DNA of 64,000 bases, taken from NCBI RefSeq assembly GCF_024298765.1, contig NZ_CP101210.1. One strand, written 5' to 3'. This DNA is from Escherichia coli. GTDB taxonomy: Bacteria; Pseudomonadota; Gammaproteobacteria; Enterobacterales; Enterobacteriaceae. Positions 49,148 to 58,469 of the stretch are shown here, one piece after another (the first letter of the stretch is position 1; each line of letters opens with the position of its first letter). The position numbers and the translations under genes are program-made. Under the pieces are notes generated by a model. It was given only the letters and a program-made list of their open reading frames with translations. It made no database searches and was not told the DNA's origin.

Positions 49148-49701
49148 TGAATACTGCGTTTCGGGTTTTACTTACGTTCAATGCAACATCACTACTAGTG
49201 ATTATCTTTGCGGTACAAAAAGGGTACTCACTCGGATATTTCTTTGGTGGTTTCGCTTGCTTCGATTGGATAGCAGCACTTCCGAACGCAGTATCATATT
49301 TACTCTATTTTCTTATCCCTGTTTTATCGACTGGATTGAGTATTTGGCTGAGTAAGTATTTGGGTAAAGACGATTTTAAGGCGGGTGAAGTAGCGAGTAT
49401 TGAGCATGCCAATAACAGCTTCCTACCAAGTTATTTGGGTTACTTTTTCGTGGCGTTGAGCATTGGTAACTGGGAGACATTGTGGTTTGTTTATGGCGTT
49501 TTGTTTGTTTTTACTCTCTTATCGCAAGCACTCTACTTTAACCCATTGTTTTTACTGTTTGGTTATGAGTTTTATAACATTACAACCAAAAACGGAACGG
49601 CCATTTTCCTTATTAGCCGAGAGCGCTACAAGAAGCCAGATGACATCGAAATATCATTGGCTTATCGAATCAATAATTACACATTTATCGAGCGAGGATA
49701 A
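49147..49701 (+). CDS. Small polytopic membrane protein (about 4 predicted TM helices), candidate defense component (KwaA-like architecture)
   Basis: 184 aa with hydrophobic segments LLVIIFAV, WIAALPNAVSYLLYFLIPVLSTGLSIWL, YFFVALSIGNW, LWFVYGVLFVFTLLSQALYF; ATG overlaps hsdR stop (TAATG); AT-rich. Confidence 0.55.
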   Translation: MNTAFRVLLTFNATSLLVIIFAVQKGYSLGYFFGGFACFDWIAALPNAVSYLLYFLIPVLSTGLSIWLSKYLGKDDFKAGEVASIEHANNSFLPSYLGYFFVALSIGNWETLWFVYGVLFVFTLLSQALYFNPLFLLFGYEFYNITTKNGTAIFLISRERYKKPDDIEISLAYRINNYTFIERG

Positions 49702-50543
49702 TGATGGACCATGTACTGGCACATATAAAAACTAGAGCAAAAAAACGCATTTTCAAATTGGTTTCTGATCAATCTCTTTTTGATACCGTCACAATCGACT
49801 TAAATGCCTGTATTCCATACAATCCAGACCATAACCTTGACGAAGACTCATGGTTTAAAATTGAAGACTTTAGTCAAAAAGAGTTTTGTATTGAACTGCT
49901 AAAAAAAGACTATGATTCAAAAGACTACGATGACTTAACCAAAGATAACTTCGCCAAGATCGCCTACTTATTTGCAATTCAAGGTAATGATTTTTACTTT
50001 CAAAAAATCACTCCAAGCCTATTCGTAAAACGCAAAACGCTTGTTTTTGGTGAAGCCGCAGAAATTGAGAAGAGCCAAACACGTTTAGTAATAAACGCCT
50101 TACCTGATGCAGTGTACTTCAAAGTGGCCGATACCTTGATATTCAAAAATCTGGCAACGATCTCGAGCATTTTTAAAGGTATCGATGAGTTGTACAAGGA
50201 AGCAACAAAAGAAGAAGTTGAGCAGTTTTTAGATGCACAGTTTATAGAGTTGGGTAATGACTACAACGTAGATAGCGTCTCAAAACCTAATAGAAAACGT
50301 ATTGGCCTTGCTATGGCAACACTTGATGCGATGTCTGCTGACGATAAAGCTAACATGCTTGATTATATCGACGGTTACTGCGGTGAACAGAAGCTGAAAT
50401 TCGATAAAGAAAATCAGAAGTTTGAAATATCTAATGACGATGAGTTGAAGTTACTGCTTTATGGCATTGAACAACGCTTCTATACGACCCCGTTTGGCAA
50501 AGAAAAAAGGCTCGCTAACTCTGTAACCGCTATGGATAAATAA
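49701..50543 (+). CDS. Soluble acidic protein, partner of the membrane protein (KwaB-like position)
   Basis: 280-aa ORF, no TM segment, no recognised catalytic motif; ATG overlaps preceding stop (TAATG), GAGG SD. Confidence 0.55.
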   Translation: MMDHVLAHIKTRAKKRIFKLVSDQSLFDTVTIDLNACIPYNPDHNLDEDSWFKIEDFSQKEFCIELLKKDYDSKDYDDLTKDNFAKIAYLFAIQGNDFYFQKITPSLFVKRKTLVFGEAAEIEKSQTRLVINALPDAVYFKVADTLIFKNLATISSIFKGIDELYKEATKEEVEQFLDAQFIELGNDYNVDSVSKPNRKRIGLAMATLDAMSADDKANMLDYIDGYCGEQKLKFDKENQKFEISNDDELKLLLYGIEQRFYTTPFGKEKRLANSVTAMDK

Positions 50544-50578
50544 TAGCCCATTATCAGTAACATATGAAGGTTGATTCA

Positions 50579-51613
50579 ATGGCCGATAACATCCCACAAG
50601 CTCCTCAAGGTGAGTTTGTTCTTTTCACCAGTGCTGATGGTCAAACCCGCGTTGAGTGTCGTTTTGAGTCTGACACCTTGTGGCTTTCTCAGGCTGCAAT
50701 GGCAGAGCTTTATCAAGTTAGCTCTCAAGCAATCACCCAACACGTAAAAGCTGTCTATTCTGAAGAAGAGCTTGAGCAAATTTCAACTTGTAAGGATTAC
50801 TTACAAGTTCAACTGGAAGGTGGCAGAGAAGTAAAGCGAAGCATTCGTCACTACAGTCTTCCGGTTATTCTTGCAGTAGGATACCGAGTTCGCTCAACAC
50901 GTGGCACCCAGTTCCGCCAATGGGCAACCAGAATGTTGCAAGAATACCTAATCAAAGGATTCGTCATGGATGACGAGCGCCTGAAAAATCCGCCCATTGG
51001 CCATTCTGCTGTGCCAGATTACTTTGATGAAATGCTGGAACGCATTCGTGATATCCGAGCTAGTGAGCGTCGCGTTTATCTGCGAGTCAAAGAAATCTTT
51101 ACCATGGCTGCTGATTACGAGCCATCTAACCAAGAGACCAACCGCTTCTTCCAAACCATTCAGAATAAGCTGCATTATGCTTGTACGCATATGACGGCTG
51201 CTGAGCTTATCGCCAGCCGTGTGGATGCCAGTAAGCCGGATATGGGCTTAACCAGCTATAAAGGCGATGAAGTGCGCAAGACAGACGTTACTGTTGCCAA
51301 GAACTATTTGCGTGAAGACGAAATCAAAGAGCTTAATCGCATCGTCAATATGTGGCTCGACTTTGCTGAAGACCAAGCACTGCGTCGCAAGCAGGTATTT
51401 TTACAGGACTGGGCCGATAAGCTTGACCAGTTCTTGAGTTTTAACGATAGAGATGTATTAAACGGTGCAGGAAAAATCTCCAAGAAAGACGCTGATGACA
51501 AAGCGAAATTGGAGTTTGACCGCTTTGCCCAGCAGCGCCGTCGTTTAAAAGAAGCCGAAGGCGCACGGGCCAATATCGCAGCCCTCAAGGCCATACTAAA
51601 AAAAGATAAATAG
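50579..51613 (+). CDS. rhuM: RhuM-family virulence-associated protein
   Basis: ...RHYSLPVILAVGYRVRSTRGTQFRQWATRMLQEYLIKGFVMDDERL... matches the conserved RhuM core as I recall it. Confidence 0.7.
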   Translation: MADNIPQAPQGEFVLFTSADGQTRVECRFESDTLWLSQAAMAELYQVSSQAITQHVKAVYSEEELEQISTCKDYLQVQLEGGREVKRSIRHYSLPVILAVGYRVRSTRGTQFRQWATRMLQEYLIKGFVMDDERLKNPPIGHSAVPDYFDEMLERIRDIRASERRVYLRVKEIFTMAADYEPSNQETNRFFQTIQNKLHYACTHMTAAELIASRVDASKPDMGLTSYKGDEVRKTDVTVAKNYLREDEIKELNRIVNMWLDFAEDQALRRKQVFLQDWADKLDQFLSFNDRDVLNGAGKISKKDADDKAKLEFDRFAQQRRRLKEAEGARANIAALKAILKKDK

Positions 51614-51670
51614 CCGATATAGTACAGCCCTGATCTCTAATGAGTTGAGGGCTGTGTTGTAAGATCATAA

Positions 51671-52057
51671 CTATAAAGGATTATCCATCTTAAAATCGTC
51701 GATATCGCCTGTCATTTTGAATAGATTGGTGTCATTCCAACGGCACAGTTGTCTAACCCGCATTAGATTTGAGTTGGCTCTGCGGATTATTGAGAAAGCA
51801 TCTTCAACAGCAGTAATCACCGATTTTTCCCAATCTTGTGCTCGGGTAAAGGTGCTTTGTGAATAGCGATAATTGCCCTCACGGGGGAGGTAATGGCTGA
51901 TCACCTGGTATTTGTCAGAATTCTTTTTAGGTTTAAACTCGTTGTAAACCCAGAAAATTTCGAGTTTTTTGTTTCTTTGCCTTACACGACAACCAAAATG
52001 ACCTGGGTAGCCTTCAGAGTTTTTACCTCTATGTGCAACGTTGTTCAGCCAGAACAA
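51671..52057 (-). CDS. Hypothetical protein (possible gene fragment, TTG start)
   Basis: 128-aa ORF with non-ATG start; no homolog recognised; upstream in-frame sequence closed by a stop. Confidence 0.25.
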   Translation of the reverse strand: MFWLNNVAHRGKNSEGYPGHFGCRVRQRNKKLEIFWVYNEFKPKKNSDKYQVISHYLPREGNYRYSQSTFTRAQDWEKSVITAVEDAFSIIRRANSNLMRVRQLCRWNDTNLFKMTGDIDDFKMDNPL

Positions 52058-52399
52058 GTCTGCAATTTTTTGTGCTATGTAGAAGTAGCGGAGCTGTTCT
52101 ATTTCGGTTGATTTATGGGTGTAGTGTAGATATTGCTCTGATATGGTTAAGGAAAAAGCATTGCGTCGTCTTGATTAACATTTGTGCTATTGACAATAAA
52201 GGTTTCCCAAATATTAATTTGTGTTTCTAGTCCTTTAAATGATTTTGAGAAGGCTTCTATGTACTCAGATTGCGGTTGATTTCCCCCATTTAGTGCTGCA
52301 CCAAATGTAGCTATCTATTGTTCTAAAAATGAATGATTTTTGGTCATTACATAATCCTCTGTGTGGTTGATACTGCGTATTTTCATGAAAGGAGATCAC

Positions 52400-54050
52400 T
52401 CAATAACCCCCCTGTGTCAGCATAGTTGTCGCCTCAATTTTTTAAGGAGATAACAATGCCAGGACAACCAATACCAAATGAGCTCAAAGAAAAAGGACTG
52501 ATATGGCTTTTGCCACCATACTGTTGGTCACACCGTCAGATAGCCCGGAAGCTGAAGATCAGTGCCTCAGTTGTATCAAAATGGAGATGTGAGTTAGTGG
52601 AGCAAGGACTTTTACCTGAAAATGAAAAGATTACCTCCGTTGATGTTGAAGACTGGACACCGGAGCGTCGATTCTCAGTTGTTCTTGAGACGGCTACGCT
52701 GTCTGTCACGAACGGTGCAATAGTGGATCACTTTTCATCCGTCGTTGACACTGTCAGAAATGGAGCTTGCCGATTATTGCCGACGCATGGGATTGTTTGT
52801 TGAACAGGTTAAAGAATGGCGGGCTATCTCAATTCAGGCGCATGAAAAAAATTGACGGAAAATATTCGAACAGACAGGGCATTGCGTGACGCAAAAAATA
52901 AGTTACGAGAACTGGAGAAAGAGCTTAAGCGCAAAGATAAAGCTCTGGCGGAAGCTGCGGCCCTGCTTATATTAAGGGAAAAGTTCAATGCCCTCTGGGA
53001 CAACAGCGAGGAAGACTGCCCCCTCTCCTGGAGCGGCATAAAATTATTTCTCTTGTCCGTGAGGCCGTCGCCAACGGCGCCCGGAAAGGTCAGGCTTGTA
53101 GGTGTATCGGTATTTCTATTCGGACACTTCAGCGCTGGACTAATGGCAACATCATCACCACGGACCGAAGATCCGATACTGTAAACAGCTCTCCCCGAAA
53201 TAAGCTGTCAGAAGCGGAAAGATTGCGAATACTGGAGTTGTGCAACTCTCCAGAGTTTGCATCCTTGCCTCCAAATGTGATCGTACCAACTCTGGCAGAC
53301 AGAGGTATTTATATTGCTTCTGAATCAAGTTTTTATCGTGTACTGAAATCAGCCAAGCAGTTGAAGAAACGATCCCGTGAATGCCAGTATAAACTGGCCT
53401 GATGTACTCAGGGCCGTTGCACCGAATCAAGTCTGGAGTTGGGACATCAGCTATTTGCCGTCCTGGGTCAGAGGCCAGCATTTTTACCTCTATATGATCG
53501 TCGATATTTACAGTCGCAAAATTATTGCTGCTGAGGTATTTGCCAGCGAATCTGGAAAACATGCAGCAGAACTACTCCAGCGTGCAGTATGGAATGAAAA
53601 ATGTTCATCCAACAATCTGGTACTCCATTCTGATAACGGTGGTCCCATGCGCAGTGACACGTTGTTGGCGAAAATGTATGCGCTTGGTGTGCTAAGTTCT
53701 TATTCCCGGCCAAGAGTCAGTAATGATAATCCTTACTCAGAATCTTTGTTCCGGACTCTCAAATATTGTCCCTGGTGGCCTGAGAACGGTTTTCGCACTA
53801 TTGATGATGCCAGAGTATGGGTAAACCAGTTTTGTAAACTGGTACAACTTTGAACATAAGCACAGCGGGATCAAATACGTCACGCCAGCCGAGCGTCATC
53901 AAGGTAATGACATGAAAATACTGGCAGCCTGAAAAGCGGTATACCAGCTAGCTCGCGAGCAACATCCTGAACGTTGGGGCAAGTATCTACGTAACTGGAA
54001 CTACATATCAGAAGTCTACCTGAATCCAGAAAAAGAGGCTGCATAACGTA
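52400..54050 (+). mobile_element. Degenerate IS3-family insertion sequence (frameshifted orfA/orfB)
   Basis: OrfA-like HTH segment (52456-52803), leucine-zipper segment in another frame (LRELEKELKRKDKALAEAAALLILREKFNALW), and DDE-domain pieces (VWSWDISYLP...LHSDNGGPMRS...SNDNPYSESLFRTLKY) spread over three frames. Boundaries approximate. Confidence 0.7.
52456..53853 (+). pseudogene. IS3-family transposase orfAB, disrupted by frameshifts
   Basis: Transposase domains recognisable but distributed over three reading frames with internal stops. Confidence 0.65.
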
Positions 54051-54180
54051 ATTTTATTACAAAAAGCGACAACTACCTTGAAAAACACCGCCAAATCATG
54101 ATCGATTCGAATGCCAAACTGCGATCGATTCAGATGCCATTTTGCATGCTGCCAGAGCAATATTCCCCCTGATGGTTGTA

Positions 54181-54855
54181 TCAGAGATGGTATGCCGGTA
54201 CTTTGCGGGTTGTTCCTGTCAGGTTATCGTGCACCTCCACATTCGTTGTCACTACCGGCATTCCGTTCTGTCTTAGTCTCAGGACATCAGCCGCAATACG
54301 CTGACTGCCAGACCAGAACAGGCCGTCCAGCGCAGTCACCAGCAATCCCGCCTCCAGCGCATACTTCAGCCGTTCACGGGGCACTTTCACTTCCCGGGCA
54401 ATCTGCTGATAGGGTGATGATGTATTTTCATTCCCAACCATCCGGCGAATACGGTGAGACAGATGATACCGGAATGTATCCGGCACACCGGAAAGACTGG
54501 CCTTCAGGCTGTACACGCAGCCAAATCGCTTATCGTTGAACACCACATTTTTCTGGCTGATATCCCATTCTTCTCGAAGCGCAGCAATCAGCTGTGGCGT
54601 GCGGGTTAAAAGCAGACGAAAAGGCAGTTCAAAACTGGTGACGTAATCCACATTCAGCAGGGCAATACGCAGCCGTTCTTCTGGTCCGGCCTCTGTCTGC
54701 CGACACTCCTCCAGAACATCCTGCCACTGCTGGCAAAGGCGTGGAGATTCATTCAGTTCTGTAAAACAATATTTATCCGCAAGATAGTCAATTTGTGCAG
54801 GCATACTGAAGAGAATTCCGTATAAAGATTCAGCAGACAAAACTTTATCAGTCAA
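54181..54855 (-). CDS. Hypothetical protein (224 aa)
   Basis: Intact ORF between two IS elements; no motif recognised. Confidence 0.35.
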   Translation of the reverse strand: MTDKVLSAESLYGILFSMPAQIDYLADKYCFTELNESPRLCQQWQDVLEECRQTEAGPEERLRIALLNVDYVTSFELPFRLLLTRTPQLIAALREEWDISQKNVVFNDKRFGCVYSLKASLSGVPDTFRYHLSHRIRRMVGNENTSSPYQQIAREVKVPRERLKYALEAGLLVTALDGLFWSGSQRIAADVLRLRQNGMPVVTTNVEVHDNLTGTTRKVPAYHL

Positions 54856-54986: not shown

Positions 54987-57729
<2,743 letters not shown>

Positions 57730-58237
57730 CGTAAGTAAAATCAGCCACCCACAGCTGGTCAGGTCGTTCTGCCACGAACTGACGGTTTACGCGGTCGCCT
57801 GCGGCAACGGCTTTCCGGCTGATGGTCGTACGGACCTTTTTACCCCGGAGAACACCGGCAAGTCCCATAACCGCCATGAGACGTGCCACTGTACATCTGG
57901 CCACCCTGATTCCTTCCCGTAACAACTGACGCCAGACTTTACGCACACCGTACACCTGATGATTTTCATCGTATACGCGCTGTATCTCTCTCTTCAGCCA
58001 GTCGTCGTGCTGCGCACGGGCACTGCGTTTATCCGGATGATGTCGCTGTTGCTGACAATGGTAATACGTTGACGGGGCAATATGCAGTTCGCTGCATACC
58101 GGTCCGACCCCGTACTGCTCACGCAGCTTATCCAGCAGTGGCATCATTTTTCCAGAGGCGGTCGAACTCCGCCTTCGCAAAATAAGCGGAAGCCTGGCGA
58201 AGGATATCGTTACTGCGGCGCAGTTCACGATTTTCAC
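57730..58237 (-). CDS. IS3 transposase OrfB, 5' exon (upstream of intron)
   Basis: ...[73 protein letters not shown]...[10 protein letters not shown] then intron. Confidence 0.8.
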
Positions 58238-58469
58238 GTTCCAGCTCTTTCAGACGCTGACGTTCAGCGCTGGTGAGCCCACCATCACCGCCCCCGGTAT
58301 CCCGCTCATGCTGGCGAACCCAGACACGCAGAGTCTCCGGCGTACAGCCAATCTTTGGAGCAATGGAACAAATTGCCGCCCACTGTGAGTCATATTCATC
58401 CTGACTTTCCAGAACCATACGAATCGCCCGCTGACGGACTTCGGGGGAAAAACGAGTATTTTTAGTCAT
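58128..58469 (-). CDS. IS3 transposase OrfA
   Basis: [107 protein letters not shown]. Confidence 0.9.

Follow-up and report, generated by a model that had tools for sequence, protein, structure and literature searches.

Insertion sequences (ISs) of the IS3 family are ~1.2-1.55 kb long, and the family is recognised by terminal TG...CA and by short (3-5 bp) target duplications. By the names that PGAP gives to homologues, the named IS3 members closest to the element described here are IS1240, ISAs20, ISPsy31, and ISSpu6, which share ~52-57% amino-acid identity with it. Since the identity to named members is only of this order, the Escherichia coli element carries no specific PGAP name. Elements of the IS21 family have multiple-repeat termini and make duplications of 5-7 bp (4-8 bp overall). 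Some ISs insert in the repeats or ends of other elements: IS1397 and ISKpn1 insert in REP palindromes, IS4321 and IS5075 insert in Tn21-family inverted repeats, and IS1353 (IS3 family) sits inside IS1326 (IS21 family) in integron In2, which is a possible precedent for the arrangements discussed below.

The window analysed here is a stretch of 64,000 nucleotides from the E. coli contig NZ_CP101210.1. Its segment 52300-54300 is E. coli chromosomal DNA that is 100% identical to many complete genomes, such as that of strain FY10. In this segment, a frameshifted IS3-family transposase pseudogene sits between two 14-mers that a sequence-only reading had reported as a near-identical direct motif, either coincidental or left over from the element ends or from a target duplication. 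Both 14-mers are indeed present on the + strand and are identical at 12 of 14 positions in the same orientation. We are highly confident that the pair is a chance resemblance and represents neither the element ends nor a target duplication. The stretch 52374-54146, which we will call the composite, is very probably a pile-up of dead mobile-element pieces around a decayed IS3-family copy. The coordinates of all features are collected in Table 1.

Table 1. Features of the locus in window coordinates, and ISEc12 mini-elements found at other loci (L numbers designate the loci compared)
Feature	Position	Strand	Basis or remark
RhuM-family gene	50579-51613		
MobI(A/C)-like gene	51671-52057	-	
ISEc12 (IS21 family) left end, outermost 34 bp, first repeat unit TGCGTATTTTCATGAAAGGAGATCACTCAATAAC	52374-52407	+	100% identity to the terminus in L016
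Left 14-mer CAATAACCCCCCTG	52401-52414	+	Straddles the junction of the ISEc12 fragment and the IS3-family element (CAATAAC / CCCCCTG)
Decayed copy (1683 bp) of an unnamed ~1630-bp IS3-family IS ("core")	52408-54090	+	End-to-end alignment with intact 1630-bp copies
Left inverted repeat CCCCCTGTGTCAGCATAGTTGTCGCC	52408-52433	+	Exact 24-nt match in 69 loci, many genera
orfA/orfB transposase pseudogene	52456-54046	+	PGAP pseudogene call; pairwise alignment, three-frame translation
IS100 (IS21 family) remnant, 47 bp, inside orfA	52704-52750	+	Termini as in full IS100 copies
Right inverted repeat GCGACAACTACCTTGAAAAACACCG	54066-54090	+	Shares TAGTTGTCGC with the left repeat
ISSso4 (IS21 family) left end, outermost 57 bp, two repeat units	54090-54146	-	100% identity to full copies L008 and L009
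Native intergenic DNA 3' of the ECs1377-family gene, holding the right 14-mer	54147-54180	.	Many E. coli genomes match
Right 14-mer CAATATTCCCCCTG	54158-54171	+	In no mobile element here
ECs1377-family / "DNA-binding protein" gene	54181-54804	-	Stop codon 54181-83
ISEc12 mini-element	L017 1201-1262		
ISEc12 mini-element	L018 1201-1267		
ISEc12 mini-element	L019 1201-1267		

The boundaries of the IS have been determined by comparison with intact copies, which are annotated by PGAP with a "programmed frameshift" on plasmid pYS767-1 (L002) and on several chromosomes (L003, L013, L014); one intact 1630-bp copy occupies 2958523-2960152 (complement) of NZ_CP069990.1. In the alignment, the sequence common to all contexts runs from CCCCCTGTGTCAGC at window position 52408 to GAAAAACACCG at 54090, and ~15 further contexts, as well as other genera, show identical boundaries. 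An exact-match scan with CCCTGTGTCAGCATAGTTGTCGCC, using one genome per species, returned 69 loci that include Endozoicomonas, Desulfuromonadales, Nitrosomonas, Vibrio, Photorhabdus, Xenorhabdus, and Trabulsiella. In nearly all of these loci, CC stands directly before the left-end match (CCCTG...GCC), and the sequence further out is unrelated. In the relatives, GCGACAACTAnnTTGAnAnnnnnCG follows ~1.63-1.67 kb downstream of the left end and is again succeeded by unrelated flank. Also, 4-bp direct repeats abut the IS ends directly, namely ATAA (L002, L055, L077), GTAA (L094), GTTT (L050), and AGAA (L066). Based on the alignment to intact copies, the cross-taxon conservation of the ends, and the abutting 4-bp duplications, the IS is assigned to 52408-54090. 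The interval 52400-54050 of the sequence-only reading is thus too short on the right, and the alignment and the 69 loci place the IS ends elsewhere than at the 14-mers. Both boundaries carry an uncertainty of 1 nt, since a C in the C-run at 52407/52408 may belong to the ISEc12 fragment or to the IS, and the final G at 54090 to the IS or to the ISSso4 fragment. The inverted repeats are imperfect, and no target duplication flanks the IS in the window copy.

Ends of the form TGTGTCAGC... and ...GAAAAACA, drawn according to the TG...CA rule, were considered and rejected, as the duplications and the cross-taxon flanks give CCCCC and CG. Position 52374 (TGCGTATT...), shared by three of the first four contexts, was also rejected as the true left end since it is the ISEc12 terminus. 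The same position is the starting point of an alternative that we consider improbable, in which the true IS is a 1696-bp "long form" with 34-bp inverted repeats TGCGTATTTTC...GGTAATACGCA, the window copy, beginning at 52374, is one that lost its right end, and the core does not form a separate unit. The long form has proper TG...CA tips and is bordered by clean 5-bp duplications at no fewer than four loci (CCAGG, TGAAA, GCAGT, and CTAAT). However, its outer 33-34 bp are identical to the ISEc12 termini, and the same core (96-99% identical) can be framed by ISSso4-type ends or by IS21-like ends of a third type (L010, L011, L091-L093). The core also occurs as a simple insertion with its own 4-bp duplication in complete ISEc12 (L002, L094), and its ends and 4-bp duplications are conserved in genera where no IS21-like flank is present.

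The left end of the core is conserved beyond the Gammaproteobacteria. Its 24-26 nt (CCCCCTGTGTCAGCATAGTTGTCGCC) are retained exactly in elements of Gammaproteobacteria, Betaproteobacteria (Nitrosomonas), and Desulfobacterota (L020-L088), and the OrfB proteins of these elements are only 47-53% identical to the E. coli protein. The sequences diverge completely right after the left repeat, and the right end is far less conserved.

The family assignment rests on the OrfAB protein reconstructed from an intact copy, which is 512 aa long. This protein scores 212 bits against the NCBIfam IS3 model NF033516 (cutoff 160) and matches the Pfam models rve (5.8e-17), rve_3, HTH_32, HTH_23, and HTH_Tnp_1, while the IS481 and IS21 models remain below their cutoffs on it. 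The orfB frame of the intact copies, at -1, remains open across the end of orfA, and the motif GGGAAAAG is found there, corresponding to a predicted -1 slippery site at 52976-52983 of the window. The intact relatives are predicted to make an OrfAB transposase (HTH + rve/DDE) by -1 frameshifting. The HTH and rve (DDE) domains, the two overlapping frames with a -1 frameshift, the 4-bp duplications, and the imperfect terminal inverted repeats are all shared with the IS3 family, and the duplication size in the relatives falls within the 3-5 bp of the family. On the other hand, the ends read 5'-CCCCCTG...CG-3', with the TG at positions 6-7 and no terminal CA, so that the termini are CC...CG and not TG...CA, and the left repeat is unusually conserved. 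The intact copies (1630 bp) and the distant relatives (~1.63-1.67 kb) lie slightly above the length range of the family, and with its 512-aa OrfAB the element is longer than typical IS3, IS2, IS150, and IS407 members. The window element is an ordinary decayed IS3-family IS.

The description of the window copy as degenerate is borne out by its lesions, in line with the IS3 model match and the pseudogene call. In the identical FY10 genome, PGAP labels the region "IS3 family transposase; frameshifted; internal stop". Compared with the intact copy L003, the window copy has 58 substitutions (96.4% identity) and four indels. Positions 52699-52750 are a 52-bp insertion, one base is missing near 52849, and single bases have been gained at 53395 (T) and 53828 (A). 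The stop codon of orfA has been lost (TGA to TGC, 53017-53019), and a TGA nonsense codon is present at 53930-53932. Both transposase frames are broken, and the copy is dead and unable to encode a transposase. The 52-bp insertion consists of the 47-bp IS100 remnant and one copy of CTGTC. In the remnant, the first 22 nt of the IS100 left end and the last 28 nt of its right end are joined via an AGTG microhomology, and it is flanked by an intact 5-bp target duplication, CTGTC (52699-52703 and 52751-52755). Full IS100 copies (L089, L090) have the same tips and 5-bp duplications. The 52-bp insertion and the 1-bp deletion near 52849 add up to +51 nt, so that the frame of orfA is restored downstream.

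The pieces on either side of the IS are derived from IS21-family elements. The ISEc12 left terminus is defined at a tandem ISEc12 junction, ...GGTAATACGCA/AC/TGCGTATTTTC..., next to annotated istB/istA (L016). When the left flank was used as a query, 1680 genomes matched overall, and coverage among the matches listed extended only over ~52373/4-52407. The tip of the ISSso4 fragment (...CCATTTTGCA) points right, and in full copies the same stretch lies just upstream of istA. At this locus, the remainders of ISEc12 and of ISSso4 are both absent, with no istA/istB of either element. The flanking and internal fragments are 100% matches to termini that adjoin annotated istA/istB, with identity counts of 36/36 for ISEc12, 57/57 for ISSso4, and 22 + 28 nt for IS100. 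With 34, 57, and 47 bp surviving, respectively, ISEc12, ISSso4, and IS100 are represented here by fossils and not by elements. The practical value of the analysis lies in the corrected IS ends and in these three unannotated IS21-family fragments. The finding itself matters very little, as it concerns a pseudogenised IS in an E. coli island and a motif that is a coincidence.

The wider surroundings contain further genes. Upstream, positions 49701-52057 hold a type I restriction R subunit, two hypothetical genes, the RhuM-family gene, and the MobI(A/C)-like gene. The left flank 52060-52373 is covered to at least 80% in only 71 records, and the wider query 52300-54300 in 217. Downstream, a second IS3-family element at 54987-58469 is interrupted by a group II intron with its reverse transcriptase/maturase gene, ltrA, at 55550-57058 on the - strand; the coordinates given for this element were transferred from FY10, whose locus is identical and annotated by PGAP. 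An Rfam-type AL1L frameshift pseudoknot is annotated in the second element at ~58073-58188, and an Rfam search of 52000-54600 gave no match.

The window's own locus is occupied by a mosaic IS copy in strain XH992 (L004). The left two-thirds of this copy resemble the intact copies and contain neither the IS100 remnant nor indels matching those at 52849 and 53395, and its right third shares the extra A and the nonsense codon of the window copy. Its left IS end adjoins an inverted ISEc12 left-end repeat unit. The mosaic is evidence of recombination between copies.

With the boundaries in place, the position of each 14-mer can be stated. The left 14-mer opens with CAATAAC, where the first ISEc12 repeat unit ends, and closes with CCCCCTG, the opening 7 nt of the left inverted repeat of the IS. 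It is thus an accidental join between the last bases of the ISEc12 fragment and the first seven bases of the IS. The right 14-mer begins 68 bp past the right end of the IS, beyond the ISSso4 fragment, and 12 bp from the right end of the composite. The stretch 54147-54200 matches many E. coli genomes, and two IS-free loci that were fetched, from strains M217 (L006) and O157:H7 9234 (L007), have no adjoining IS and both read GCCAGAGCAATATTCCCCCTGATGG. As no IS adjoins the same stretch in these genomes, the right 14-mer is native host sequence independent of any IS at this locus, and it very probably matches the left 14-mer at 12 of 14 positions by chance.

The degree of similarity is unremarkable in statistical terms. 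In a repeat search of a 2.2-kb stretch, the 14-mer pair was one of 40 direct-repeat families of similar quality. When pairs of random 160-bp segments, 1.74 kb apart, were drawn from the same window, a direct 14-mer with at least 12 matches was found in 7.8% of 600 pairs, and a shuffled window is expected to contain the motif 0.31 times when up to two mismatches are allowed. The 12/14 match is not beyond the chance level. Of the origins offered by the sequence-only reading, the coincidental one is favoured by the IS boundaries, the native right copy, and this chance level. The suggestion that the motif is a remnant of the element ends holds for the last 7 nt of the left copy, which are the start of the IS; it fails for the first 7 nt of that copy, which belong to ISEc12, and for the right copy.

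Two other origins of the 14-mers have been weighed against chance resemblance. It is very unlikely that the right 14-mer is the relic left end of a second, older IS of the same group, i.e., a solo inverted repeat starting from CCCCCTG. The right 14-mer does share CCCCCTG with the conserved left repeat, but the bases that follow, ATGGTTGTATCAGAG, bear no convincing similarity to TGTCAGCATAGTTGTCGCC, no further IS sequence is found beyond the stretch, and different lineages, O157:H7 (94% identity) among them, retain the stretch as the 3' flank of the ECs1377-family gene. A target-site duplication from the insertion of the IS or of the whole composite, suggested by the shared orientation, the placement on either side of the transposase, and the 12/14 identity, can be dismissed as hardly credible, since the right 14-mer lies away from both the IS end and the composite end and in native DNA with no adjoining IS in the two genomes checked, the left 14-mer lies partly inside the IS, the relatives duplicate 4 bp (IS) or 5-7 bp (IS21-ended composites) with the 4-bp duplications directly abutting the ends, the window copy has no such duplication, and the composite is in fact bordered by GATAC and TGCTG.

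With the 14-mers read as a chance resemblance, a history of the locus can be proposed from its remaining pieces. ISSso4 would have landed earlier in the intergenic DNA 3' of the ECs1377-family gene, and the IS3-type insertion would have followed, and then recombination with an ISEc12-shelled copy. IS100, a third IS21-family element, struck orfA and later collapsed to 47 bp. The outer sequences of the composite, GATAC and TGCTG, do not form a flanking duplication. Because no duplication is present around either the IS or the composite, we infer that copies in different IS21 "shells" recombined, or underwent a deletion between them, to give the present arrangement, and that it is not the product of a single insertion event. 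Comparable cases exist elsewhere: a hybrid at L015, with ISSso4 as the shell on the left and ISEc12 as that on the right, and the mosaic copy of L004.

The association of this IS with IS21-family ends extends to other copies. About 15 copies have been examined from E. coli, E. albertii, Klebsiella and Salmonella plasmids, Citrobacter, Photorhabdus, Xenorhabdus, and Vibrio, down to ~61% protein identity (the loci behind the association are L002, L003, L005, L010-L015, L091-L097, L027, L075, L077, and L087). In all of these enterobacterial and Vibrio copies, at least the left end adjoins IS21-family terminal repeats (ISEc12, ISSso4, or others). Most left junctions are 8-10 bp from a GATC. In two junctions the distance is 14 bp, and at a few right junctions (L011, L092, and L095) an IS21-like GATC is missing from that position. 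Members further removed (47-53% OrfB identity) have no IS21 flanks and keep the identical 26-nt left end.

In two cases, L002 (ATAA) and L094 (GTAA), the IS sits as a simple insertion in a complete ISEc12, 4 bp of which are duplicated around it, which shows that the IS3-type element inserted into the IS21-type element and not the reverse. The converse possibility, that IS21 elements target the IS3-type element, has been rejected for L002, L094, and L077, where 4 bp of IS21-end sequence are duplicated around the IS. Most of the other copies have the chimeric structure [IS21 end]-IS-[IS21 end], lack istAB, and are flanked by 5-7-bp duplications. The duplications are CCAGG (L003), TGAAA (L012), GCAGT (L013), and CTAAT (L014) for ISEc12-ended chimeras, CATGAA (L092), TAAAAA (L093), and CTTTCAT (L096) for those with ISSso4-type ends, and CCACAG for a chimera with the third end type (pO113, L011); a 76%-identical sister IS (L005) has a GCACT duplication. 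The inner chimera junctions are identical at the different loci L012-L014. Chimeras carried as passengers of IS21 transposases acting in trans would explain both the identical chimeras at different loci and the 5-7-bp duplications, and the comparison suggests that the chimera may move as a unit on IS21 machinery supplied in trans.

We tentatively propose that this enterobacterial/Vibrio clade may insert site-specifically in the IstA-binding repeats of IS21 ends, usually with a GATC 8-10 bp away and with a 4-bp duplication, and that loss of istAB could then produce chimeras served by an IS21 transposase in trans. The likeness of this clade to the other ISs that target the ends of elements (IS1397/ISKpn1, IS4321/IS5075, IS1353) is one of behaviour. 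IS1353 does not appear among the best 60 tblastn matches listed (plasmids), and text searches of the literature found no paper on IS21-end targeting or on chimeras of this IS clade. The association is a modestly interesting lead. If true, the short list of end-targeting ISs would gain an IS3-family clade whose target is defined, and a way for one IS family to travel on the termini of another would come to light. This would be relevant to the build-up of nested IS clusters on plasmids of virulence and resistance (pO113 and pUMNK88_K88, for example).

A target smaller than a full ISEc12 has also been considered. By analogy with IS1397 in REP, the IS could have inserted at the centre of an ISEc12-derived mini-element, and a Nissle "empty" site, which lies at the locus of L003, was compared with it. 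This candidate was rejected as the Nissle site is not the precise pre-insertion site: the filled right junction at L003 would be expected to read ATAAC and reads (G)TTAC. The chimeras of E. coli are better explained by a presumed insertion into full ISEc12 followed by loss of istAB than by a mini-element target.

The mini-elements are 62-68 bp long and consist of the outermost left and right repeat units of ISEc12, TGCGTATTTTCATG...GGTAATACGCA; they carry no annotation in any of the examples fetched. Two full ISEc12 copies are found in direct tandem at L016 (1200-1300), with their right and left ends 2 bp apart (ACGCA/AC/TGCG). A tandem junction with abutted ends is a reactive intermediate of IS21 transposition. 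In a BLAST search, a 67-bp mini-element construct was covered to at least 80% in 2359 E. coli genomes, a count that includes the tandem-ISEc12 junctions, and up to 30 places of any length matched the construct per genome.
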